Below, piece by piece: positions 1,916 to 64,000 of a stretch of 64,000 nt of DNA (positions are counted from its first letter, which is position 1; each line of letters begins with the position of its first letter). The notes under the pieces were generated by a model, which worked only from the letters and a program-made list of their open reading frames with translations, did no database searches and was not told the origin of the DNA. The position numbers and the translations under genes are program-made. Source of the DNA: Alphaproteobacteria bacterium (GTDB lineage: Bacteria > Pseudomonadota > Alphaproteobacteria > GCA-2731375); contig CBDDDJ010000005.1 in assembly GCA_965226475.1 (NCBI GenBank), positions 1,741,690 to 1,805,689 on the forward strand. Reading direction: 5' to 3'.

Positions 1916-2790
1916 TCAGTAGGGCCGGTCGCCGCGCACCAGGATTCGGTAGAGCATGCGGTGCTGGCTTTGGTCGTAGTCGAAGCCGGCCTTGTGCATG
2001 GCGGAGCGGTTGTCGATCAGCAGCATGTCGCCCAGGCGGTATTCGTGGGTGTAGGCGAACTCCGGGCGGATCGCCGTCTCCAACAGTTCGGTCAGGAACG
2101 CCTGGGTCTCGTCGGGCGCCATGCCGAGGATGTTCTCGGTCTTGTTCTGGTGGAACCAGATCGCCTTGGTGCCGCGTTCGGGGTGGGTGCGCACGAGCGG
2201 CTGGATCAGCGGCGCGCCCTCGGCCGCCGCCGCCCGCTGGTCGGCGACGATGTCGGGGTTGGCGTCCGTGCTCCTGGCGCGGGCACTGCTGATCAGCGTG
2301 TTGGCGGTACGCATGGGATCGATCCGCCGGCGCGTCTCGTCCGGCAGCGCCTCGTAGGCCGCCCGCATGTTGCAGACCGAGGTGCCGCCGCCCGACTCCG
2401 GCAGCGCCACGGGATAGAGGCTGGTGAACTTGGGCGGGTGTTCCTGGTTGGTGTGGTCGGTGTGCCAGGAGGCGTTGTTCGCCATCTTGGCCGGCCGGCC
2501 CTGGCTGTCCTTGTGGCGGTTGGACAGCACGCTCACCAGCGGCACGCCGTCGGCGAGAAAGCGCCGGTTCTGGTCCTCCATCAGCTCGCCGAAATTCTCC
2601 GCCGCGCGCTGGAATTCCGCGGCGGTGAAGTGCTGGTCGCGTATGACCAGGACGACATGGTCCACGAGGGCACCGTAAAGCGCCTGGCGCGTCGCCTCGT
2701 CGAGCGGCAGGCGGAGGTCCACGCCCGTGGCCTCGGCCCCGATGTGCTCCTTGATCTTGGTGATCGTCGGCGACGGCGTCTCGGCGAGCA
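1916..2790 (-). CDS. TauD/TfdA-family alpha-ketoglutarate-dependent dioxygenase
   Basis: The C-terminal 291 aa of ORF 1916..4333 (starting MLAETPSP) carry TauD-like HxD...H motifs (WHTDHT, MHKAG). The rest of the 805-aa ORF is a read-through artefact of high GC. Confidence 0.75.
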
Positions 2791-2897
2791 TTGATGCTCC
2801 CTCTTCATCGCGGGACGGCGGGCGGACGGCGGGCGGACGCCCGCCGAACGGCACGAATAGTGTAACACGTCCGGACATCGACAATGGAGCGCGGCGC

Positions 2898-3087
2898 ATG
2901 GACCCTCTCTTCGATTTTACCGGCAAGGTGGTACCGATCACGAGCGACAGCCGGGGCCTGGGCCTGGCCATGGCGCGGGCTTTCGCGGAGCGCGGCGCCA
3001 ATCTGATCATCGCCAGCCGCAAGCTGGAGAACCGCGAAAAGGTGGCGGCGGAGCTGGAAGGCCTCGGCATCGAGGCTCGAGTGGCGA
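2898..3087 (+). pseudogene. Short-chain dehydrogenase/reductase (SDR), N-terminal fragment only (about 63 aa), truncated by foreign insertion
   Basis: MDPLFDFTGKVVPITSDSRGLGLAMARAFAERGANLIIASRKLE is a classical SDR Rossmann N-terminus (TGxxxGxG). The reading frame degenerates after about 3087, where the AT-rich foreign DNA and IS begin. Confidence 0.65.
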
Positions 3088-3170
3088 GCTGCGGGCCGCA
3101 CGGCCCGGTTTCGAGGGTACAAACGACATTCTCGTGTACGTCCATCATTTTATCTGTATAGACGATAATC

Positions 3171-4778
3171 CGTAACTGCCCAGGTACGTGGCCGCCTTTC
3201 AGGCGGCGTGGAGACGTGCGATCAGGGTTTCGGGATTTTCCATGAGCGCCTGGATGATGTTCCAGCCCTGTTTTCTGGCGGTCGAGATGAAGCCGCGGAC
3301 GGTGGCAAAGTCTTCGGCGCCTTTCTGGCTGCGGAAGCCGCCGGAGATTTTCTGCTTGACCTTCATCATGCGCCCGTCCTGCTCGGCCTGATTGTTGGTG
3401 AACGGCACGGCGAAATTGGTGAGGAAGCGTAGCGCATCTTCCTTGCGAGCCTGAAGGCGCCGGAGAAGGTTGTGGCCGACGCGGCGCGGCTTGCGTCCCC
3501 GGCGCCTGGCCTTGCCCTCGACCGGTTTGGGCGCGAGAGGAGGTTGGGCCTCGTGAAAGGCGATGCCCTCGGCCGTGATGGCGTCCCAACATCGTCGGAA
3601 GCGGCTGACGAGGCTTGGTTTCAGCGCCACTCCCCGCTCCCGGGCGAGATTTACCGCGTGGCAGGCGCGGCGCAATAGTCTCTGCATCTTGCCCGCCCAG
3701 TCCTCCTTCTCGATCTCGACCAGGGCTTGCAACTCGCGCAGGTGATGGGCGTTGCACAGCGCGTGCCGCACCCCCTCCATCGTGAAGTACGGCTTCCAGT
3801 GGTCGTGGACGACGATGCCGCCGACGCCGCCGAGCAGGCTGCCGCGCCGGGGCGAAACCCGGTAGAAGGTCAACAGCGCCGTGGACGCGACGTGCAACCA
3901 TTGACCCCGCCCGGCGACCCGGAACCCGGTCTCGTCCATGTGCTTGACCGGCGCCGATTTCACCAGCTCGCGGATCGTCCCGACGACGCCTTGCACGGAC
4001 TCGGCGCTGTTTCGGCCCATCCGCGCGATGCTCGCCGCAGACAGCCCGGCCCCGAACAGATCCTTCATCAATGCGGCCAGGCGGTCCTCGGGCAGGAGCT
4101 GGTAGTGCGACAGGTAGACCACCATGGCTCCGATCCGACCGCCGTACTGAACCGGGCCGGTGACGCCGTCGGGAAAGGAAGCCCGAGTTTGCGTGCCGCA
4201 ATGCCCGCAACGGCAGCGATGCGCCCGATGCTCCGTGACCACCAGGGGCCGGGGCTCGGGCAGGTCGAAAACCTGACGGGCGCCGTGGCCGGTGGTCATA
4301 TCCGGCGTCAATCCCGAACCACACCGCCGGCACGTCTCGGGATAATGATCGACGCTGGCGTCGGGATCGGCGACTTGGCGCAGGGTCTCGCCCTCGTGGC
4401 CCTTCTGCCCGCCCGGCTTGCGATCCGATTTTCCGCGAAGGCTCCCGGTGCGTCGCTTCTTCTTCCCCGCCGGCGGTTTGTTCAATCCATCGCTGGACGG
4501 CGGCTTGCCGCTGTTCGTGCTGTTCAGGCCAAGCTGGCGCTCGAGTTCGCCAAGCCGGAGTTCGAGCTCGGCGAGCCGCGACCCTTGGGCCAGCACCACA
4601 TCGATCAGGTCGTCTTTCGACAAAAAGGCGAGAGCATACCTATCCATCGAATCCTTAGAATCGACCCACCATCTCTTGTCAAACGAAATCTAGGCCGTCA
4701 GCGCCTCAAACCCACAAAATCTGCCCCGAGAGACCCAATCCGCAGCCCCAGCGAAATCAGATACCTGGGCAGTTACAT
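3171..4778 (-). mobile_element. IS66-family insertion sequence, ISBst12-like single-ORF type (about 1.6 kb)
   Basis: Terminal inverted repeats GTAACTGCCCAGGTAC (3171..3186) and GTACCTGGGCAGTTAC-like (4762..4777) match at 15 of 16 positions and start with GTAA as in IS66-family ends. They enclose a single 482-aa IS66-type transposase. Confidence 0.75.
3199..4647 (-). CDS. IS66-family transposase (TnpC-like, DDE)
   Basis: A 482-aa ORF with an N-terminal leucine zipper, a CxxC...CxxC zinc-finger region (CRRCGSG...CRCGHCG) and a C-terminal DDE core typical of IS66 TnpC. Confidence 0.85.
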   Translation of the reverse strand: MDRYALAFLSKDDLIDVVLAQGSRLAELELRLGELERQLGLNSTNSGKPPSSDGLNKPPAGKKKRRTGSLRGKSDRKPGGQKGHEGETLRQVADPDASVDHYPETCRRCGSGLTPDMTTGHGARQVFDLPEPRPLVVTEHRAHRCRCGHCGTQTRASFPDGVTGPVQYGGRIGAMVVYLSHYQLLPEDRLAALMKDLFGAGLSAASIARMGRNSAESVQGVVGTIRELVKSAPVKHMDETGFRVAGRGQWLHVASTALLTFYRVSPRRGSLLGGVGGIVVHDHWKPYFTMEGVRHALCNAHHLRELQALVEIEKEDWAGKMQRLLRRACHAVNLARERGVALKPSLVSRFRRCWDAITAEGIAFHEAQPPLAPKPVEGKARRRGRKPRRVGHNLLRRLQARKEDALRFLTNFAVPFTNNQAEQDGRMMKVKQKISGGFRSQKGAEDFATVRGFISTARKQGWNIIQALMENPETLIARLHAA

Positions 4779-4794
4779 ATATACATCATACCAT

Positions 4795-6036
4795 TTACAT
4801 TGTATTAATCATTTCAATGCGACAGCATCGATAGGCCCACCGCGCAAACGACCTTCCGGCAACTTCCTCGCCGGCCATCCAGCGCAGCACAACAGGGTCA
4901 AGTTTTGAATTGTGAATTTCTCCTACCAATGATCCGGCGTTGACTATCCGACGTCCGCCGCTGACGCCATCGAAATCATAATTCAAGACTTGAACCCTTG
5001 CATCGTGGGATGTTGCCGAGAGCCCGGATCGGGCGGCGAGCGTCTCGACGGTGGCGTATTGCCGTGGCATCAATTCCGATTGATGCGCCCCAAGCATAAA
5101 CCAGACCTTTTTACAGAAATTCAGCGCAATGTAGGGAGGCATGTTGTTGTGAGGCTGGCTGCCGCCCGCTTCTCCAATGCTCGCCTTGACGAGACCGTGT
5201 TTGAATCCCGCCGGGGCCTGATCAAATTTCACTTTCCGTACGCCAGCATGAAACCAGTATTCATGCTCTGGTCCATGCGTGTGGCTTGGCATCTCTTCTG
5301 CCGTCAGGATGTGCTTTTCCTCGCCACTTATTTCGCCGAAACGGTGGTTAGTAAGTCCGTGTCGTCGATCCGTGTTGACGCCAATGATAAATCGCCCTTG
5401 TGCTTCTTCGTAAGTCACCCAGCCAGTAGGGCATTCTTGACCTGCAAAAGCAATAACCGTATCTCTGGGCAAAACCGCATCATTGAGAACAGCCTCGATT
5501 TTACTAGTTCCCAGTGCTTCCAGTTCTCGGCGAACGTTTGCTTGGAGTTCATCTATGGAGGAGTTAGTATTAGCAAGAATATCCGCAGCCTTACTTGTCA
5601 GGACTGTTTCTGTAGTCTCATTGACTTTTTTACTAATGAGATCTTCTACCTCTTTTTCACCCATTTTATTTTTTATCGCCATCACCACTTGATCATCAAG
5701 TCTATGTTTCAAATTGTCAACAATGCGATACTCGACAACCTTTTGGTCTATCGTTGCTTGCAGAAGTTCCTTCGATTCATCGATGTTTTTTCCAGTGTAA
5801 AAGACAAACGCGCCGCCAATCGTCGTCAGGACGACTGATACGCCGATCGTTAAGTACCTGAACTGGCGTTGAAGGTGTTCGCGGTAGCTCGCCGCCGCGT
5901 TATTATAACTCTCGGAGAGGTGGCTTATTGCATTCGTCAGCGTTTGATCCTGACTCTGCATCACTCGCCTGACTTCGACCTCAACAGCCGTTCTAGTTTC
6001 GTCGTCCATGTCAATCCCCCAAAGAAATGGCGCCAA
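4795..6036 (-). CDS. Membrane-anchored coiled-coil protein with a C-terminal phage tail-collar domain; low-GC foreign gene
   Basis: A 413-aa ORF with one TM helix (YLTIGVSVVLTTIGGAFVFY), a long coiled-coil and a C-terminal tail-collar domain (FAGQECPTGW...EMPSHTH...HNNMPPYIALNFC). GC is about 45 % against about 67 % background. The last ~35 codons read through MITE copy A and on to a stop in the GC-rich DNA between the MITE and the IS66 element, so the true C-terminus is uncertain. Confidence 0.7.
   Translation of the reverse strand: MAPFLWGIDMDDETRTAVEVEVRRVMQSQDQTLTNAISHLSESYNNAAASYREHLQRQFRYLTIGVSVVLTTIGGAFVFYTGKNIDESKELLQATIDQKVVEYRIVDNLKHRLDDQVVMAIKNKMGEKEVEDLISKKVNETTETVLTSKAADILANTNSSIDELQANVRRELEALGTSKIEAVLNDAVLPRDTVIAFAGQECPTGWVTYEEAQGRFIIGVNTDRRHGLTNHRFGEISGEEKHILTAEEMPSHTHGPEHEYWFHAGVRKVKFDQAPAGFKHGLVKASIGEAGGSQPHNNMPPYIALNFCKKVWFMLGAHQSELMPRQYATVETLAARSGLSATSHDARVQVLNYDFDGVSGGRRIVNAGSLVGEIHNSKLDPVVLRWMAGEEVAGRSFARWAYRCCRIEMINTM
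4887..5005. repeat. 120-bp palindromic MITE-like repeat, copy A
   Basis: About 88 % identical to 6119..6238. It has terminal inverted repeats GGGTCAAGTTTTGAATTGTGAATTTC / GAAATCATAATTCAAGACTTGAACCC. Confidence 0.7.
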
Positions 6037-6118
6037 ATATGCCTTGTATGAATTATAGGCTGACTTTCAGGCGTCATCCAAAACTTTTCTCGCATAATCT
6101 CGCCCGCGCGCACACTTT

Positions 6119-6238
6119 GCACAATAGGGTCAAATCTTGAATTGTGAATTTCTCCTACCAATGACCCGGCGTTGTTTATCCGGCATCCGCCACTGGCGCC
6201 ATCAAATTCACAATTCAGGACTTGACCCCTTACATCGC
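6119..6238. repeat. 120-bp palindromic MITE-like repeat, copy B (direct orientation relative to copy A)
   Basis: Same element as 4887..5005, with terminal inverted repeats AGGGTCAAATCTTGAATTGTGAATTT / AAATTCACAATTCAGGACTTGACCCC. It directly abuts the SDR C-terminal remnant. Confidence 0.7.
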
Positions 6239-6430
6239 GCGCCGGAGGAGATCGTCGCCGCCGCGCTCTATCTCGCGGGCGGCGGGGCCAGCTTGACCAG
6301 CGGCACCACCATCCGCGTCGACGGCGGCACCGACCGAGAAACGGGCACCCCCCTCCCTTGCCGGGCAGGAATGGGTTATATCTGGGGCCGGCGCGCGAAG
6401 GGCGCGCCCCGAAACGATGACGGAGGATGA
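6239..6430 (+). pseudogene. SDR C-terminal fragment, probably the 3' remnant of the gene whose 5' part is at 2898..3087
   Basis: The translation EEIVAAALYLAGGGASLTSGTTIRVDGG is the canonical SDR C-terminal motif. The central ~150 codons of the gene are absent. Confidence 0.55.
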
Positions 6431-6434
6431 CGAG

Positions 6435-6866
6435 ATGAGCGTGGCGATACAGATCGACGACGACCAGGGCGGCATGCGCGCGGGCGGCGTGGCGGTGGCG
6501 AAGGCTTCCCATCCGAAGATGGTGCCGGGCCGGCGCGACTTCATGCAGTATCGCGAACTCGGCGTCACCGAGGCGAGCGAGGGCAAGATCCGCGCCCAGG
6601 TCACCTCGTCCTCGCAAGGCCTGTCGGAGCCGACCGGCTGGCACGTCCACATCTGCGAGGGCCAGTTCGTCTACATGATGAGCGGCTGGGTCGACCTGGA
6701 GTTCGAGGACGGCAAGGTCCGCATCGAGGCCGGTGACTCGATCTACATCCCCGGCGGCACCCCGCACAACGAGACCGCCACCTCGGACAATTTCGACCTG
6801 GTCGAGGTCTCCGTTCCCGCCGACATGGGCACCAAGCCCTGCGATCCGCCGGCCGGCCGTAGCTGA
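6435..6866 (+). CDS. Cupin-domain protein
   Basis: The motif GWHVH..EGQFVYMMSGWVDLEF....IYIPGGTPHN is a cupin-2 two-motif signature. A GGAGGA Shine-Dalgarno sequence lies upstream of the 6435 ATG. Confidence 0.6.
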   Translation: MSVAIQIDDDQGGMRAGGVAVAKASHPKMVPGRRDFMQYRELGVTEASEGKIRAQVTSSSQGLSEPTGWHVHICEGQFVYMMSGWVDLEFEDGKVRIEAGDSIYIPGGTPHNETATSDNFDLVEVSVPADMGTKPCDPPAGRS

Positions 6867-7984: not shown

Positions 7985-8803
7985 ATGGAGGCCATCTACG
8001 ACCGTATCGGCATCGGCTACGACGCGACCCGGCGGGCGGATCCCGGGATCGTCGCCAGGCTTCGCCATCACCTCGGCGCCGATGACGCCGGGGCCTACCT
8101 CGACGTCGGTTGCGGCACCGGCAACTACACGATCGCGCTGGCGCAAAGCGGCATCCGGATGACGGGCATCGATGCCTCGGCGGTTATGTTGGACGAAGCG
8201 CGGCGCAAGGCCGCCGGCGTGGCGCGCCTCTCCTGGTGCCAGGCCGACGTCGCCAAGCTGCCGTTTGCCGACGGCCAGTTCGCCGGTGCCCTCTGTACCC
8301 TCGCGATCCAGCACTTTCCCGACCTCGGGGCGGCGATGGCGGAGGTGGCGCGGGTGCTGGATCCCGGTACGGGGCGGCTGGTCCTTCTGACCGCGACGCC
8401 CGAGCAGATGGCGCGGTACTGGCTGAATCGCTATTTCCCGGCAATGCTGGCCCGATCCATCCGGCAGATGCCGGCTCTCGGCGATGTGCGGGCGGCGCTC
8501 GGGGCGGCGGGCCTCGCCATCACCGAGACCGAGCCCTTCTTCGTCACGCCGGCGCTCCAGGATCTCTTCCTCTATAGCGGCAAGCAGCGCCCCGAACTCT
8601 ACCTCGACCCTCGCTTTCGCGCCGGCATCTCCAGCTTCGCCAACCTCGCCAAGGCGGACGAAACCGAGCGGGGCCTCGCCGCCCTGGCCGAGGACATCGA
8701 TACCGGCCGCATCGGCGAGATCATCGCCGGCGCCGATCACGATGGCGGCGACTGTCTCTTCGTCGCCGCCTCGCGGCGGAATGATGGGGTGCTTGGAATC
8801 TAA
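7985..8803 (+). CDS. Class I SAM-dependent methyltransferase
   Basis: The LDVGCGTGNYT motif I and a Methyltransf_11-like layout. Confidence 0.7.
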   Translation: MEAIYDRIGIGYDATRRADPGIVARLRHHLGADDAGAYLDVGCGTGNYTIALAQSGIRMTGIDASAVMLDEARRKAAGVARLSWCQADVAKLPFADGQFAGALCTLAIQHFPDLGAAMAEVARVLDPGTGRLVLLTATPEQMARYWLNRYFPAMLARSIRQMPALGDVRAALGAAGLAITETEPFFVTPALQDLFLYSGKQRPELYLDPRFRAGISSFANLAKADETERGLAALAEDIDTGRIGEIIAGADHDGGDCLFVAASRRNDGVLGI

Positions 8804-8854
8804 TCGACGTTCGATTAACATGGGCGCTGGCTGTCCGGTGGTCGGACGGCCGAC

Positions 8855-9003
8855 GTTCTCGGGGCGGGGTGAAAGTCCCCACCGGCGGTGATTGCGCCAA
8901 GGCGCATCAGCCCGCGAGCGCCCGCCAAATTATCGGCGGGGTCAGCAGATTCAGTGTGATTCCGAAGCCGACGGTCATAGTCCGGATGGAAGAGAACGGG
9001 AAA
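8855..9003 (+). promoter_or_regulatory. FMN riboswitch (RFN element) upstream of ribH2
   Basis: The sequence contains the conserved RFN blocks GGGGTGAAAGTCCCCACCGGCGGT ... AGCCCGCGAGCGCC ... GGTCAGCAGATTCAGTGTGATTCCGAAGCCGACGGTCATAGTCCGGATGGAAGAGAAC, positioned 5' of a lumazine synthase gene. Confidence 0.85.
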
Positions 9004-9090
9004 GTCACCGCTGGTCGGCACTTGTCCGGCCGTGGGCAATCCGCTTCCCCGTACGCCCTGATTCAGGTCTCGAGCGAAGAGGATTGACCG

Positions 9091-9567
9091 ATGAATCAGA
9101 GCCACCCTAATACCACCGGCGATGCCATCGCCCTGCTGCAAGCCTGCTGGCACCGCGACATCGTCGACCAGGCGGTGATCGCCTGCCGGGCGGAACTCGT
9201 CCGCCTGGGCGTCGACCAAGCGCGGATCGAGACCCACGAGGTGCCCGGCAGCCTGGAGATCCCGCTGCACGCCAAGCTGCTGGCCAAGAGCGGGCGCCAC
9301 GGCGCCATTGTCGCCTTCGGCTTCGTCGTCGACGGCGGCATCTACCGCCACGTGTTCGTCGCCGAAACCGTGATCGACGCCATGATGCGGGTACAGCTGG
9401 AGACGGAGGTGCCGATCCTATCCTGCGTGCCGACGCCGCAACGCTTCCACGAAAGCGACGAGCACCACGGCTTCTTCCACCAGCATTTTTTGGTCAAGGG
9501 ACGCGAGGCGGCCGAGGCCTGCGTCGCGACGCTCGAGAACATCGCCCGTCTGCGAACAGCGGCCTGA
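9091..9567 (+). CDS. ribH: 6,7-dimethyl-8-ribityllumazine synthase (type II, RibH2-like)
   Basis: A 158-aa protein with the lumazine synthase fold signature (VPGSLEIPL, FGFVVDGGIYRH, ...SCVPTPQ..., KGREAA). It carries a Shine-Dalgarno sequence and lies downstream of the FMN riboswitch. Confidence 0.8.
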   Translation: MNQSHPNTTGDAIALLQACWHRDIVDQAVIACRAELVRLGVDQARIETHEVPGSLEIPLHAKLLAKSGRHGAIVAFGFVVDGGIYRHVFVAETVIDAMMRVQLETEVPILSCVPTPQRFHESDEHHGFFHQHFLVKGREAAEACVATLENIARLRTAA

Positions 9568-9576
9568 TATTGCTTC

Positions 9577-9606
9577 CCCGGCGCCGGGATTATGGGTCCC
9601 GGCGCC
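9577..9606 (+). terminator. Perfect 12-bp GC stem-loop just after the ribH stop; possible terminator with a weak U-tract
   Basis: The sequence is ccggcgccggga ttatgg gtcccggcgccgg. Confidence 0.3.
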
Positions 9607-9825
9607 GGCGGCCACTCACATTAAGAAATCCCGCGCGGGATGTGCTAAACAGCTTGGCAACCGGCGCGGTAGGCTGTTTCAGGGTGAGGCTTTGGTGCGG
9701 GTTGACGAAAGAGCGCACAATCCCCAGGATATCGCGCGCTATCGCTCGCGATCTGCTGTCTTTTAGGACCGTTTGCACGGCGCCGCTCGTTTCTGATCGT
9801 CGGCTCTCAAATCGCTCTAATCGTC

Positions 9826-10593
9826 TTGCTGACGATCCTCACACAGGTCGGCGGCCTGGCCCTTTGGCTTGCTCATGGCGTCGGCGCGGTGATCCGCCGG
9901 CGTCGGAACAGCGGAACAATATTGACCTTCGTTCTGCTGTACACCGGCCTCACCGCCGGCGTCGTACCGCGCGTGGCGCCGTACTTCGGTCGGGTGCCGC
10001 TCGATTGTTTCACCGGACCCAGCACGGCCTATGCGGCCAACTCGCGGCTCTATTGCACACTCAACCGCCACTATGTGCGACCCAAATTGAAACTCCTAAT
10101 GATGGCCCTGTCGGCCCACGTTTCGGCACGCCATCCGGGAAGCGTGCTCACCTATCTCGATGCGGGCTTTCCCTTCCCTCTCGGCCTGCCGCTGTTACCG
10201 CATCTCTCGCACCGCGACGGCCGTTCGCTCGACGTCGCTCTGTTTTACGAGACGACGGGTGGTGCACGACCGGTCCGGGGTGGCGCTTGGTGGTTGGGTT
10301 ATTGGGCCTTTGCTCCCGCCCGACGTCATGAGGCGCCGCCCGCATGCCGGCGCGACGGCTTCCTCCGCTGGCGGATGGAAAGCCTGCAAGGACTTTTCGC
10401 CGATCTCAGCCTGGATCACGCGCGAAACCGGGAAATGCTGTCTTGGCTCCGTGGCGAAGGTCCGCAGCATGGCCTGCGGAAAGTCTTCATCGAGCCCTAT
10501 CTGAAGCACCACTTGGGTGTCGAGGGGAACATTTTACGCCATGCCGGTTGCAATGCCGCCCGGCACGACGACCACATTCACCTTCAAATGTGA
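9826..10593 (+). CDS. MepA-like (peptidase M74/LAS-superfamily) murein endopeptidase-like protein with an N-terminal TM/signal
   Basis: HLSHRDGRSLDVALFY resembles MepA HASHQTGLDVDIFL (His/Asp Zn ligands), and the C-terminal HDDHIHL resembles the MepA HxH motif. Confidence 0.45.
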   Translation: MLTILTQVGGLALWLAHGVGAVIRRRRNSGTILTFVLLYTGLTAGVVPRVAPYFGRVPLDCFTGPSTAYAANSRLYCTLNRHYVRPKLKLLMMALSAHVSARHPGSVLTYLDAGFPFPLGLPLLPHLSHRDGRSLDVALFYETTGGARPVRGGAWWLGYWAFAPARRHEAPPACRRDGFLRWRMESLQGLFADLSLDHARNREMLSWLRGEGPQHGLRKVFIEPYLKHHLGVEGNILRHAGCNAARHDDHIHLQM

Positions 10594-10596
10594 AAC

Positions 10597-11349
10597 TCAA
10601 CGCAGACCCAGCGTGGCGTTGGCGATAATGTAGGCGCCGAGAGCCAAGATGGCGATGAAGAAGACGCGGCGGAACATGGCTTCGGAGAACCGCCGGCGGA
10701 CCTTCTGGCCGACGAGCATGCCGAGAGCGGCCGGGATAAGCGCCGCGCCGGAGACGGCGCCAAGCTCCAGCGACAGAAAATCGTTGCCGCCCAGCGCCAC
10801 GGCCAGCGCCACGGTCGAGGCGGTGAACAGCATCCCCATCGCCTGCACCAGCGCGTCGCGCGGCAGGCCGATCGCCTGCAAAAACATCACCCCCGGCACC
10901 ACGAAGGAACCGGTCATGCCCGTCAGCACGCCGTTGGCGGTGCCGATCAGCGGGCCGGCCCAGACCTCCTGGCGGGGCGAGAGGGTGAGGCGGATGCCGC
11001 CCAGGTTGATCGCCGCATAAGCGATCAGCAGCCCGCCCAAGAGGCCCGAGAGAATGTCGAGGTCGACCGTGGTGAGCGCGCTGGCGCCGAGCCAGACCGT
11101 CACCGTCGCCATCGCCAGAAACGGCCAGATACGGCGCAGGATCGCCGCGCCGTTGCCGCCCACCGCCGCCTGCCACAGGTTGGTGGCGAAAGACGGGATC
11201 AGCAGCAGCGCCATCGCCGTCGTCAGGTCGAACGCCACGGTCAACAGCCCGAGGCTGACCGTTGGCAGGCCGAGGCCGATCACCCCCTTGACCCCGCCCG
11301 CCAAAAGGAAGGTGAGGGCGACGGCAACGATGATATGGGGCTCGAACAC
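10597..11349 (-). CDS. TauE/SafE-family sulfite/anion exporter (DUF81)
   Basis: A 250-aa protein of two 4-TM repeats with Gly-rich helices typical of TauE/SafE. Confidence 0.7.
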   Translation of the reverse strand: MFEPHIIVAVALTFLLAGGVKGVIGLGLPTVSLGLLTVAFDLTTAMALLLIPSFATNLWQAAVGGNGAAILRRIWPFLAMATVTVWLGASALTTVDLDILSGLLGGLLIAYAAINLGGIRLTLSPRQEVWAGPLIGTANGVLTGMTGSFVVPGVMFLQAIGLPRDALVQAMGMLFTASTVALAVALGGNDFLSLELGAVSGAALIPAALGMLVGQKVRRRFSEAMFRRVFFIAILALGAYIIANATLGLR

Positions 11350-11367
11350 GGGCGCGCCGCTTGCGCC

Positions 11368-12432
11368 CTAGACCACCTTCACGTTCCGTGCATCGGAGAG
11401 CGCGTCGAGCATGCCCTGGACCGTGTCCTCGTCCATGTCGCGGGTGATGAAGACGACGCGGCTGCGGCGGTCCTCGCTCGGCCAGGCGTCGAGCTGCACC
11501 GGTGGGTGGAAGAGATGCTGCACGCCGTGGAGGACGATCGGCTTGTCGCTCTCCTCGACGTTCAGAATTCCCTTCACCCGCAGCATGTCCTCGCCCCGGT
11601 AGTTGGCCAGCAGCTCCAGCCAGGTGGCAACGCTGTTCCACGGCAAGGGATCGTCGATCGTCATGCAGAAGGCGCGGATGCGCTCGTCGTGGCGGTTCAC
11701 GTCCCGGTGGTCGTGGTCGTGCTCATGATCATAGCCGTGCTCATCGTCCTCGCGGTAGGCCTCCTCGCGCAGCCAGCGGGCGACGTCGAGGGTCTTGCTC
11801 GCGGGATTGTAGAGCCCGGCCTCGAACAGCATGCCGGGCGCGATGTCGCCGAAACTCACCGGCAACTGTTCGGCGCCGGGATTGAGACCCCGGAGCCGCT
11901 CGCCGAGGCTCGCCACCGCCCCCTCGTCGGCCAGGTCCGACTTGGTCATGAGGATGCGGTCGGCGACGGCGGCCTGCTTCACCGATTCGAAGTGATTGTC
12001 GAGCGTGCCCGCGCCGTTCACGGCATCGACCGTGGTGATCACGCCATCGAGGCGGAAGCGGCTGGAGAGAACGGGATCGGCCATCAACGAGTGCAGAATC
12101 GGCGCCGGGTCCGCGAGGCCGGTGGTTTCGATCACCAGCCGCTCGAAAGGCGGAACCTCGTTCCTCGCCCGCTTGACGTAGAGACCGCGCAGCGTGTCCA
12201 CCAGCTCGCCCCGGATGGTGCAGCACAGGCAGCCGCTCGACATCAACACGATGTCCTCGTCGGCAGATTCCACCAGATCGCTATCCAGCCCGATCTCGCC
12301 GAACTCGTTGATCACCACGGCGGTTTTCGCCATGTCGGGATGCTGCAGCAGGCGGTTCAGCAGCGTGGTCTTGCCGCTGCCGAGAAAACCGGTGATGACC
12401 GAAACCGGCAGCAGCTCGCCTTCGCTATCCAT
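11368..12432 (-). CDS. CobW/COG0523 G3E-family GTPase (putative metal chaperone)
   Basis: It has a Walker A GFLGSGKTT, the GCLCCT metal-binding motif, a His/Asp/Glu-rich linker (EDDEHGYDHEHDHDH) and a CobW C-terminal domain. Confidence 0.8.
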   Translation of the reverse strand: MDSEGELLPVSVITGFLGSGKTTLLNRLLQHPDMAKTAVVINEFGEIGLDSDLVESADEDIVLMSSGCLCCTIRGELVDTLRGLYVKRARNEVPPFERLVIETTGLADPAPILHSLMADPVLSSRFRLDGVITTVDAVNGAGTLDNHFESVKQAAVADRILMTKSDLADEGAVASLGERLRGLNPGAEQLPVSFGDIAPGMLFEAGLYNPASKTLDVARWLREEAYREDDEHGYDHEHDHDHRDVNRHDERIRAFCMTIDDPLPWNSVATWLELLANYRGEDMLRVKGILNVEESDKPIVLHGVQHLFHPPVQLDAWPSEDRRSRVVFITRDMDEDTVQGMLDALSDARNVKVV

Positions 12433-12486
12433 CTTCGTCCACTCCCTTGGCCCAGAGGCCTCCGATATAGCACCTAGTACTGGCCA

Positions 12487-13457
12487 TTAAAAATAAGGCT
12501 CAATTCGTGAATTGTATGCGTCACCTTGTTACGGCGGCGGCGAGGCAGGCTCGGTCATTGGCGCCGGGGGCGAGGCCGACGAGGTGGAACCAGCTCAGGT
12601 AGTTGTCCAGATAGCGGGTGGCGATGCCGCGGCGGGGACGCAGGAAGTCCTTCAACCGGCTGTGGCGGCTGTTCACCGTCTGCACATGCAGATCGCCCCG
12701 AACCCGTTCCCCCATCGAGCGGTTGAGTGCTTCGTGGCTCACCCCGAGCGCGGCGGCGCAAGGTGGATAGCTCGCGCCACCGTCGGAGACCAGCAGGGCG
12801 TCCTTCGCGACCACCGGGTCGAGAGCAGCCGTGAGCGCCGCCGCGTCGACCCTGGGCAGCACCGCGCTCACCGTCGTCCCGCTCCGCCCCGCCGCCGTGC
12901 CTTGCGTCCCAGCCCGCGCGCGCCCTTCCGGCTCTCCAGGACGTAGGTCTCGTCCGCTTCCACGATCCCCTTGAGCACCTCCGAATCGCTCCGCGCCGCC
13001 GCCAGAAACCGGTGACGCCAGCGGAACGCCGTGCTCACCGCCACGTCGCAGCGCGCCGCCGAGGCCTTCACCGTCTCCCCCTCCGCCAGCGACGCCCCGA
13101 ACGACAGCCAGCGTTCCTTGTGGTGCAGGCCCGACAGCGGCGTACCGGTCAGCGCGTTGAAGGTCCTGCCGCAGCCCTTGCACTGGTAGCGCCGCAGACC
13201 CCGCGCCATACCGCGCGAAACCGCCCCTTCGCTCGAGCAGTGCGGACAGCGCCGGGCCTCGTCCACACCAAGCTCGATCGCGGCCTTCGATGCCTCGCCT
13301 TCGCTCCGGCCCGACAGCACCGCGAGCGCCTCGTGCCGCTGCACGCGCGTCAGCCCGCGCGCCGCCGAAAGCCACACCTGGAAACCCTTGCCGTCCATGA
13401 CCCAACCCCCTGACGTTCCGGGCATTCTATCACAAATGCATACGTTTCACAAATTGA
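12487..13457 (-). mobile_element. IS1595-family insertion sequence (about 971 bp) flanked by an 8-bp target-site duplication AAAAATAA
   Basis: Imperfect terminal inverted repeats GGCTCAATTCGTGAATTGTATGCG (left) and GGCTCAATTTGTGAAACGTATGCA (reverse complement of right). Direct repeats AAAAATAA lie at 12479..12486 and 13458..13465. A second identical copy begins at 63891. Confidence 0.8.
12521..13425 (-). CDS. IS1595-family transposase, split over two overlapping frames (12868..13425 N-part, 12521..about 12900 C-part)
   Basis: The N-terminus has the IS1595 zinc ribbon (CPHCSSEG...YQCKGCGRTF), an HTH and the ADETYV motif. The DDE C-terminus continues in another frame, so this is an apparent frameshift. 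Confidence 0.7.
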
Positions 13458-13584
13458 GCCAAAAATAATGGCTCCCCGGGCACCCCGCTCCCCCGGCCCA
13501 GCCACCCGTGGAGTGTACCCTTGGGGTAGTTGGGCCGGGGGAGCGGGGTGGCCGGGACTTACGATAGTAACCACGAGGAGAGGG

Positions 13585-15129: not shown

Positions 15130-15457
15130 GTCCGCCCCTCGCCTCCGCGCGACTCCCCCACACGGCGCCAGCCTATCGCCCCCTCGCCGGCTTGGCGACA
15201 GCAATGGCGAAGCGGAAAAATAATTTCCGAAACCGTGATGGAGATCACGGACTCTACCGCCCCTAGCGGCCATAATAAGGATGTCCCGTGAACCGATGGG
15301 TTATGGGATGCCGATCCAGGGACCCGTCGGGGACCCGGATGAACGGCTCAACGACAATGGCAAACCGTCGGAAACGGCGGGACGCAAAGCCACCGGCCGT
15401 CCGCCCCAACACCGCAAAGTAGGGGCACGGTAGCGGGGCTACCGAAAGGAGGCCGTC

Positions 15458-63608: not shown

Positions 63609-63890
63609 AGCCGCCTCGGCGCCTGTGGATCTTTCGCCGAACTATGCCGGCGACGATGACTTTGGGGGAGTCGGAAGACTCCATTACGGTTGGTCTGGAC
63701 ATGGTGTATCGCCTTTTGGGGATCGTGGCATGCCCAATCGAGAGAGTGGGCTTTTTTCTCGAATTGCCGGAACAGACGGCGCCGGAGCGCGTGGCCGGCG
63801 ATCATCGTCGACGGCGGCGCGATGTATCCCATCCAGGCGCTCTGGCCGGCGCCTCGGTCGGTCGAGGCCGGAATAGAGGGTAAAATAGAA

Positions 63891-64000
63891 GGCTCAATTC
63901 GTGAATTGTATGCGTCACCTTGTTACGGCGGCGGCGAGGCAGGCTCGGTCATTGGCGCCGGGGGCGAGGCCGACGAGGTGGAACCAGCTCAGGTAGTTGT
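63891..64000 (-). mobile_element. Second copy of the IS1595-family element (left 110 bp; continues beyond window)
   Basis: 63891..64000 is identical to 12487..12596. The flank here is AAATAGAA rather than AAAAATAA, so this is an independent insertion. Confidence 0.75.

Follow-up and report, generated by a model that had tools for sequence, protein, structure and literature searches.

In a 64,000-nucleotide stretch of DNA from an uncultured alphaproteobacterium (GenBank contig CBDDDJ010000005.1, positions 1,741,690 to 1,805,689; the window below), a gene for a short-chain dehydrogenase/reductase (SDR) lies in two pieces about 3.1 kb apart, between a TauD-family dioxygenase gene and a cupin gene. 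Our best overall explanation, which we consider quite probable, is that a foreign fragment replaced the core of the SDR gene, that the gene decayed, and that the island so formed later took up insertion sequences (ISs) that differ from strain to strain. A sequence-only reading of the window had described the same DNA as an IS66-like element and a low-GC gene for a tail-collar protein, bounded by two MITEs (miniature inverted-repeat transposable elements) and inserted with loss of the middle of the target gene. All the parts that it listed are present, at or near the places where it had put them, and are arranged as follows (window coordinates, strand in brackets).

1916-2791 (-), TauD-family dioxygenase gene, the left neighbour of the split SDR gene
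2898-3092 (+), SDR N-terminal remnant, codons 1-65, now within an 87-aa open reading frame (ORF) ending at 3161
3093-3171, left end of the island, 79 bp of unique sequence, 51% GC, opening with a GGGCCG-CA-CGGCCC hairpin
3172-4776 (-), ISBst12-group IS of the IS66 family, 1605 bp; its transposase ORF of 482 aa is at 3199-4647 (-)
4777-4886, island DNA from the IS to repeat copy A, 110 bp, 48% GC
4887-5005, hairpin repeat copy A, MITE-like, 119 bp, downstream of the cargo gene, 95 bp from its natural stop
5101-6009 (-), cargo gene including its former stop codon; natural extent 5104-6009 (302 aa), with the ATG at 6009
6119-6237, hairpin repeat copy B, MITE-like, 119 bp, 109 bp upstream of the start of the cargo gene
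6237-6337 (+), SDR C-terminal remnant, from position 2 of codon 218 to codon 250, former stop codon included; the frame now extends to 6430
6435-6866, cupin gene, to the right of the SDR remnant and followed by an EamA transporter gene

The two pieces of the SDR gene

The N-terminal piece matched positions 1-55 of the Pfam family adh_short (E 1.3e-8), and the C-terminal piece matched positions 206-235 of adh_short_C2 (E 8e-4). We scanned the TauD protein against one genome per species and then searched the 80 returned loci by tblastn with the window proteins. Of these 80, one locus showed synteny, namely L007 of an uncultured alphaproteobacterium. Its TauD is 80% identical to that of the window, and its gene order is MFS-TauD-intact 250-aa SDR-(GFA-like gene)-cupin-EamA. 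A protein search using a chimeric SDR query revealed a closer sister lineage (proteins P0062-P0066), whose loci L184-L187 read TauD-intact 250-aa SDR-104 nt-cupin with a spacing equal to that of the window. Residues 1-65 of the window SDR showed 66% identity to the L007 SDR and 74% to the L187 SDR (P0064) by manual count, and the C-terminal remnant is 81% identical to residues 220-250 of the L007 protein. The N-terminal remnant ends at 3092, with an uncertainty that reaches about 3107, and the nucleotide alignment of the window to L187 begins at 6237. The DNA at 3093-3171 showed no homology to the intact SDR gene of either L007 or L187. No counterpart of residues 66-217 was found in the window, nor in loci L001-L006 and L087-L090 of the same species. 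Because both L007 and L184-L187 carry an intact SDR between TauD and cupin, the two pieces are, by this comparison, the ends of one gene whose middle is gone. The sequence-only reading had proposed just such a split and deletion, and the relatives, which carry one SDR rather than two separate genes, define the empty site.

The lost stretch, codons ~66-217 or about 450 bp, held the Ser/Tyr/Lys catalytic centre. The Ser...YxxxK residues (SSTAS...YGAAK in the relatives) that a functional enzyme would have are missing from the window SDR. The cofactor motif TGxxxGxG has also been lost, the window reading TSDSRGLG versus TGGSRGLG in L007 and P0062-P0066; L13 has changed to P, and stop codon 251 has been lost (CGA at 6335-6337 in the window versus TGA in L187). 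The fragments align to both ends of a classical (adh_short) oxidoreductase of 250 aa, but with the catalytic centre deleted and the glycine motif and stop codon mutated the gene is a two-piece pseudogene.

The island and its cargo gene

Without the IS the island measures ~1.62 kb and consists, from left to right, of 272 bp of unique sequence, hairpin copy A, 95 bp, the cargo gene, 109 bp and hairpin copy B. Its GC content is 48.8%, versus 66-68% for the host, and GC drops from 66-70% to 41-56% across 4650-6150. The cargo gene has 48% GC, which is low as the sequence-only reading had remarked, though not the 45% that it gave, and 49% GC at third codon positions (GC3) versus 92-94% in the TauD and cupin neighbours. 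At this locus the gene was found in neither relative (L007, L184-L187). Because GC and GC3 are atypical and the island is missing from both relatives, the island is, as judged by composition and comparison, foreign DNA, in agreement with what had been proposed for the insert.

The ORF at 4795-6036 (413 aa), which had been taken for the cargo gene, contains a real gene but is artificially long. In the window strain a TGA stop has become TGG at 5101-5103, and the loss of this stop adds 102 codons to the frame, which reads through repeat copy A to 4795; this explains the 413-aa ORF. The natural product of 302 aa ends ...PHNNMPPYIALNFCKKV and is found as P0001 in L178, L005, L006 and L174. The gene is eroding: it has lost its stop codon in the window strain, it is split by an IS5-family element in L175 and L177, and in L177 it is also frameshifted. 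Between strains the island has diverged by 1.1% (10/909 nt), versus 0.44% in flanking host DNA.

The recorded gene calls of three long-read assemblies list a 229-aa (+) ORF antisense to the cargo gene (L174 11762-12451, L176 12252-12941, L178 10729-11418), corresponding to about 5150-5838 in the window, and the true 302/404-aa cargo gene is not called there. The antisense call is likely an annotation artefact from the atypical codon usage of the island in a high-GC genome.

The N-terminal part of the cargo protein contains a hydrophobic segment (YLTIGVSVVLTTIGGAFVFYTG) followed by long predicted helices. The confidence of an AlphaFold model was low (mean pLDDT 59), and its quality did not suffice for a search by fold. 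The C-terminal ~100 residues matched Pfam Gp10_C (PF21939; E 1.2e-6, 29.9 bits versus a cutoff of 27), residues 203-302 matched PHROG tail and tail-fibre families with E values down to 3e-11, and profile matches in the PDB included a tail fibre (9nxk_A, 2.3e-6) and T4 gp10 (2fkk_A, 6e-3). H243, H245, H287, N289, M290 and P292 are invariant, and the protein has an invariant HxH and a PHNNMPPY motif. The cargo is a coiled-coil protein, anchored in the membrane, whose C-terminal domain is of the tail-fibre-tip (gp10_C/collar-like) kind. In T4, the trimeric tip of the short tail fibre binds a metal ion through an HxH motif, which for the cargo protein is a lead only. The likeness to phage tail-fibre tip and collar proteins (T4 gp10, PF21939; PF07484 'microcystin-dependent protein', MdpB-like) is thus one of the C-terminal ~100 residues with their HxH and PHNNMPPYxAL motifs. 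Unlike those proteins, the cargo has as its N-terminal two-thirds a transmembrane segment and long helices that are unconnected to any phage tail, and its gene is solitary, with phage genes absent nearby.

The best non-allelic homologues (P0002, P0003, P0005) are just 31-37% identical to the cargo protein, and the full architecture occurs in only a handful of database proteins (P0002, P0003, P0005, P0020); the C-terminal domain alone is encoded by many viral contigs. One homologue neighbours Abi_alpha, SNase and SRAP genes. We looked for hairpin repeats in the flanks of the homologues and found none, and defence-system profiles (PADLOC) produced nothing but weak, non-specific matches. Every close copy of the cargo protein, whether exactly as in the window or 98% identical (P0001), maps to this one locus.

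Insertion sequences in sister strains

The transposase ORF of the IS66-family element matched Pfam DDE_Tnp_IS66 (E 1.5e-39), zf-IS66 and DUF6444 as well as NCBIfam transpos_IS66 (E 6.5e-85), and perfect 15-bp terminal inverted repeats (GTAACTGCCCAGGTA) lie at 3172-3186 and 4762-4776. The organization is that of the ISBst12 group: a single 482-aa ORF in a 1605-bp element, with tnpA and tnpB absent, and terminal repeats that begin GTAA. In three other places (L088, L089, L090) the element occurs full-length, with 0-1 mismatches, and these copies share and define its ends; L087 carries the left end only. Duplications of 8 bp flank the L088 and L090 copies (CTAGCAAC and AGTTAATC); none was found at L089 or at the window copy, whose flanks read GATAATCC and ATATATAC. 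ISDge4 of Deinococcus geothermalis, a comparable element, has ends GTAACTGCTCAGCA and an 8-bp duplication (PMC12898284); the ends of the window IS begin GTAACTGC. The likeness to this group thus extends to the size of ~1.6 kb, the one ORF with DDE_Tnp_IS66 and zf-IS66 domains and the 8-bp duplications at intact insertions. The window IS differs in that its best match in a plasmid collection reaches 64% identity across 44% of its length, and in that the window copy has no duplication, a feature tied to the 79-bp deletion described below. It is an ISBst12-group element that is new in sequence and apparently active.

We then surveyed alleles of the locus through the 87-aa protein that the SDR remnant encodes, a search that returned 12 same-species contigs from several metagenomes, ~99.4% identical to the window. 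The following alleles were distinguished.

IS-free, L178 and L180 (L182 by length): island whole, with a 79-bp stretch TTTAAAGCC...TTTTTTTA where the window has its IS
ISBst12-group IS, window and L176 (L001, L002 and L183 by matching ends): IS in place of the 79 bp
IS1595-family IS, L174 and L006: inserted ~25 bp further right, at about 4797-4804, with an 8-bp duplication TTAATTAT
IS5-family IS, L175 and L177: inserted within the cargo gene at 5643-5646, with a duplication CTTC

The island and the SDR deletion are common to all alleles, and only the IS content differs. In the IS-free strains, 3093-3171 joins the extra 79 bp and then the sequence from window position 4777 onward; the 79 bp are kept in L178, L180, L174 and L175 (implied by length in L182). 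Because sister strains carry the island and the SDR deletion without that IS, the IS66 element is a later, strain-specific arrival, which took the place of 79 bp of island DNA. The entry of the island and the splitting of the SDR gene were not its doing. The window IS has no duplication because these 79 bp were deleted on insertion. The idea that the IS was the carrier of the unit, or a part of it, is thus contradicted by L178, L180 and L182, which have the island with no IS, and by the strains that have an IS1595 or IS5 element. The left junction of L006, which we had considered as a rearrangement or circular junction, turned out to be the end of an IS1595-family element that is also present in the window at 12497-13460.

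The hairpin repeats

Copies A and B are direct repeats of 119 bp that are 87% identical, with no comparable match in 100 shuffles. Each folds to a stem of ~25-30 bp (z-scores of -3.7 and -6.5, respectively, versus shuffles), and arm mismatches are more numerous in copy A than in copy B. In size and structure they agree with MITEs, being 119 bp long (under ~300 bp), non-coding and ended by terminal inverted repeats.

We searched for hairpins with a pattern made of the arms only (GGGTCAANTNTTGAATTGTGAATTT). It matched one sediment metagenome contig, L093, which has ~45% GC and carries AceK-like and sulfite-oxidase-like genes. The L093 element is ~187 bp long and has perfect 27-bp arms (GAGGGTCAAATCTTGAATTGTGAATTT) around an AT-rich interior that is unrelated to the window repeats; the left arm of copy B is identical to the L093 arm across 25 nt. 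This match makes the arms a conserved unit in very different hosts. The shared arms favour an origin of the repeats from a mobile element, and a low-GC donor.

No other relative of the repeats was found. An exact 22-mer of their conserved part was absent from a set of one genome per GTDB species, from the JGI metagenomes and from IMG/VR; the arm-only pattern had no match in viral contigs; and when the repeat, the L093 element and the complete island were compared by BLAST with plasmid and phage sequences, the matches did not rise above chance level. Looking for the repeat elsewhere, as had been proposed, thus gave one remote arm match, L093, and none in plasmids or phages. A protein search with the repeat-encoded peptide, aimed at copies hidden in called ORFs, found none. 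The 64-kb window contains two copies, both in the island, and ~30 kb more of same-species DNA (L087-L090) contains no further one. Rfam at a permissive threshold gave a chance miRNA match on copy A only. The arm pattern lay beside no transposase in metagenome, viral or plasmid searches, so that no parent IS emerged, and the arms of copies A and B and of the L093 element ended without a target-site duplication (direct repeats of 2-9 bp). The 8 nt beyond both arms are common to copies A and B, which looks more like a duplication of the 119-bp unit than like two independent insertions. In calling the two direct palindromic repeats MITEs, the sequence-only reading was right about the 119-bp hairpin architecture, and the label holds for the architecture only. 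Readings of the arms as dif/Xer sites or Tn3-type ends were rejected on sequence inspection; the inner TAAG found in Tn3-type 38-bp repeats is missing from the arms.

A weak sigma-70-like match (TTCACA-16-TATTGT, 9/12) lies at 6121-6148 (-) inside copy B and faces the cargo gene. Such sites are no commoner in the region than in shuffles, and a repeat-borne promoter is a lead only.

The boundaries of the island and its mode of entry

The right junction of the island is exact: at position 6237 the sequence common to copies A and B ends and the homology to an intact SDR begins (an overlap of 1 nt, as compared with L187), so the downstream repeat does abut the SDR remnant base-to-base, as had been described. 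At the other end, copy A is set off from the SDR remnant by 272 bp of unique sequence that belongs to the island. We looked for a third arm remnant in this segment, and the best alignment score was below the shuffle mean. There is no target-site duplication around the island; about 450 bp of the target have been deleted instead. A composite transposon would have a repeat end against the target on each side and a duplication around it, whereas here only the right end abuts the SDR and there is no duplication. Nor was the unit found at a second genomic location; it occurs at this locus only and had no match in plasmid or phage DNA. A clean insertion of a composite transposon is not supported by this arrangement, and the earlier description of a MITE-bounded cargo unit fails at the left end.

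The history that we favour would run as follows. In an ancestor of the species-level population, foreign low-GC DNA, of which at least 1.6 kb remain, would have integrated into the SDR gene between TauD and cupin, and SDR codons ~66-217 would have been lost either at integration or by a later adjacent deletion. Loss of the glycine motif for the cofactor, and of the stop codon, would have followed in the pseudogene. A low-GC donor is the most likely source of the repeats, which would have arrived together with the fragment. Because the island does not end in a repeat on its left and a target duplication is lacking, the integration was probably either an illegitimate replacement that involved no transposase or the trimming of a larger element, rather than a transposition of a repeat-bounded composite. 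These modes are inseparable because all sampled strains share the final state. The AT-rich and apparently unconstrained island then turned into a sink for ISs, as the comparison of strains shows.

Three points weigh against this history. The coincidence of the right boundary with the end of copy B is expected if a repeat end was joined to the target, and a purely illegitimate event predicts none; the end of copy B could itself have been set by truncation at the junction, given only two copies. Copies of the repeat were scanned in only part of the roughly 9-Mb host genome, and activity of the repeats in the host is possible. Finally, the changes in the cargo gene are 6 non-synonymous (the stop loss included) versus 4 synonymous, which gives relaxed selection no statistical support.

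Trimming of a larger element can be put in a more definite form, which we regard as possible but on the unlikely side. A larger genomic island or prophage fragment would have entered at about SDR codon 65, and a later one-ended deletion running from copy B's outer end would have removed the rest of it together with codons 66-217; the deletion would be an intramolecular, one-ended transposition by a transposase that recognises the arms. This accounts for the boundary with a single repeat end, for the absent duplication and for the missing SDR middle, and it suits the phage-tail-like domain of the cargo and the homologue that sits beside Abi_alpha, SNase and SRAP genes in an island of mobile or defence type. 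However, the locus has no integrase, no att site and no remnants of other phage genes, nothing indicates that the arms serve any transposase in this host, and no intermediate was seen, the sampled strains all being in the final state.

Transposition of a composite, in which two MITE copies carried the tail-collar gene with a transposase acting in trans, perhaps with the IS66 element, and deleted the middle of the target, seems to us improbable. MITE-bounded composites are known to move genes, as TIME-COMPs (PMC4133298, PMC13367494), and MITE-flanked integrons have been documented (PMC3934969). As in these bacterial MITEs, TIMEs and TIME-COMPs, the Acinetobacter MITE-flanked integrons and MITEAba12, two direct, short, non-coding repeats with inverted arms of 25-30 bp bracket a single foreign passenger gene in the window. 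The arms, moreover, are kept in the unrelated genome of L093 around a different interior, and the right outer end meets the SDR exactly. Against this, 272 bp without any trace of an arm lie between the SDR remnant and the outer end of copy A, so that unlike a TIME-COMP the unit does not reach the target DNA at its left end. Neither the unit nor either copy has a target-site duplication, and the 8 nt shared outside the arms are unlike what independent insertions would leave. The unit was found in no other context, and neither a copy of the repeat beyond the two nor a parent transposon was found in the host DNA and the collections searched. The IS-free alleles, which make the IS a later strain-specific arrival, weaken the proposal further. 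The locus fails the structural tests of MITE-bounded composites. A variant that we think a little less probable still is that the hairpins belong to an undescribed mobile family that leaves no target duplication, with conserved arms (GAGGGTCAAATCTTGAATTGTGAATTT) and a variable interior, pairs of which carry a single-gene cassette; the junction of hairpin and SDR would then be its footprint.

We also considered the repeats as attC sites of an integron, the island being a piece of an integrase-less cassette array (attC cluster), and find this very improbable. Imperfect palindromes of ~120 bp that lie in direct orientation around a single ORF are consistent with it, as are the conserved arms and the variable centre in comparison with L093. 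The boxes of attC sites are R'' (RYYYAAC) and R' (GTTRRRY), of which AAC and GTT are the most conserved feature. On inspection these triplets are missing from the arms of all three copies, there is no integrase nearby, and the homologues of the cargo are not flanked by such sites.

The reading of the SDR-like fragments as parts of two different genes joined by an IS-mediated rearrangement, to which the lack of a duplication at the window IS and the L006 left junction that first appeared different had lent some colour, is refuted: both relatives have one intact SDR between TauD and cupin to which the fragments correspond in order and orientation, the IS-free alleles show the same arrangement of fragments, the 79-bp deletion accounts for the absent duplication, and the L006 junction is an IS1595-family insertion.

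The locus thus offers a well-resolved natural history of the death of one gene, which is clear but ordinary genome decay. Every component belongs to a known kind, and current understanding is unchanged. The AT-rich insert gathered three unrelated ISs across near-identical strains. The locus is a worked example for annotating metagenome-assembled genomes, as regards pseudogenes, hot spots for ISs and the antisense gene calls, and a strain marker for this uncultured alphaproteobacterium. It adds a new ISBst12-group element and a candidate low-copy hairpin whose arms cross phyla.

Neighbouring features

The complete IS1595-family element at 12497-13460 is 964 bp long, with its transposase at 12521-13405 (-), 23-bp terminal repeats that begin GGCTCAATT and an 8-bp duplication AAAAATAA; it is missing from L178, L175 and L177, which have a clean empty site. 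A further, partial IS1595-family copy appears to start at ~63881-64000, at the right edge of the window. Just outside the complete element, between two (-) genes, lies a GC-rich palindrome (13475-13556) with 33-nt arms that are 91% complementary and 16 nt apart. In L177 another IS with DDE_Tnp_1 and DDE_Tnp_1_assoc/DruA domains (7996-9783) lies between TauD and the SDR remnant, so that the whole neighbourhood is prone to ISs, beyond the island.

The relatives show changes of their own. In the sister lineage, which keeps an intact SDR, TauD is truncated to 118 aa (L184-L187, 5498-5854), and IS1595-family and DDE_3 transposase genes fill the interval between cupin and EamA (8000-12750), so that here the locus has decayed along other lines. 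L007 has an extra Cys-rich gene of 147 aa between SDR and cupin (8704-9147), apparently GFA-like by its CxC motifs, that is missing from the window species and from the sister lineage.

Two riboswitches were found further to the right in the window. An FMN riboswitch (8851-9001; Rfam RF00050, 106.7 bits) lies upstream of a DMRL synthase (ribH-like) gene at 9091-9567, and a c-di-GMP-I-GGC riboswitch aptamer lies at 15350-15447 (Rfam RF03167, 65.8 bits versus a gathering score of 59).

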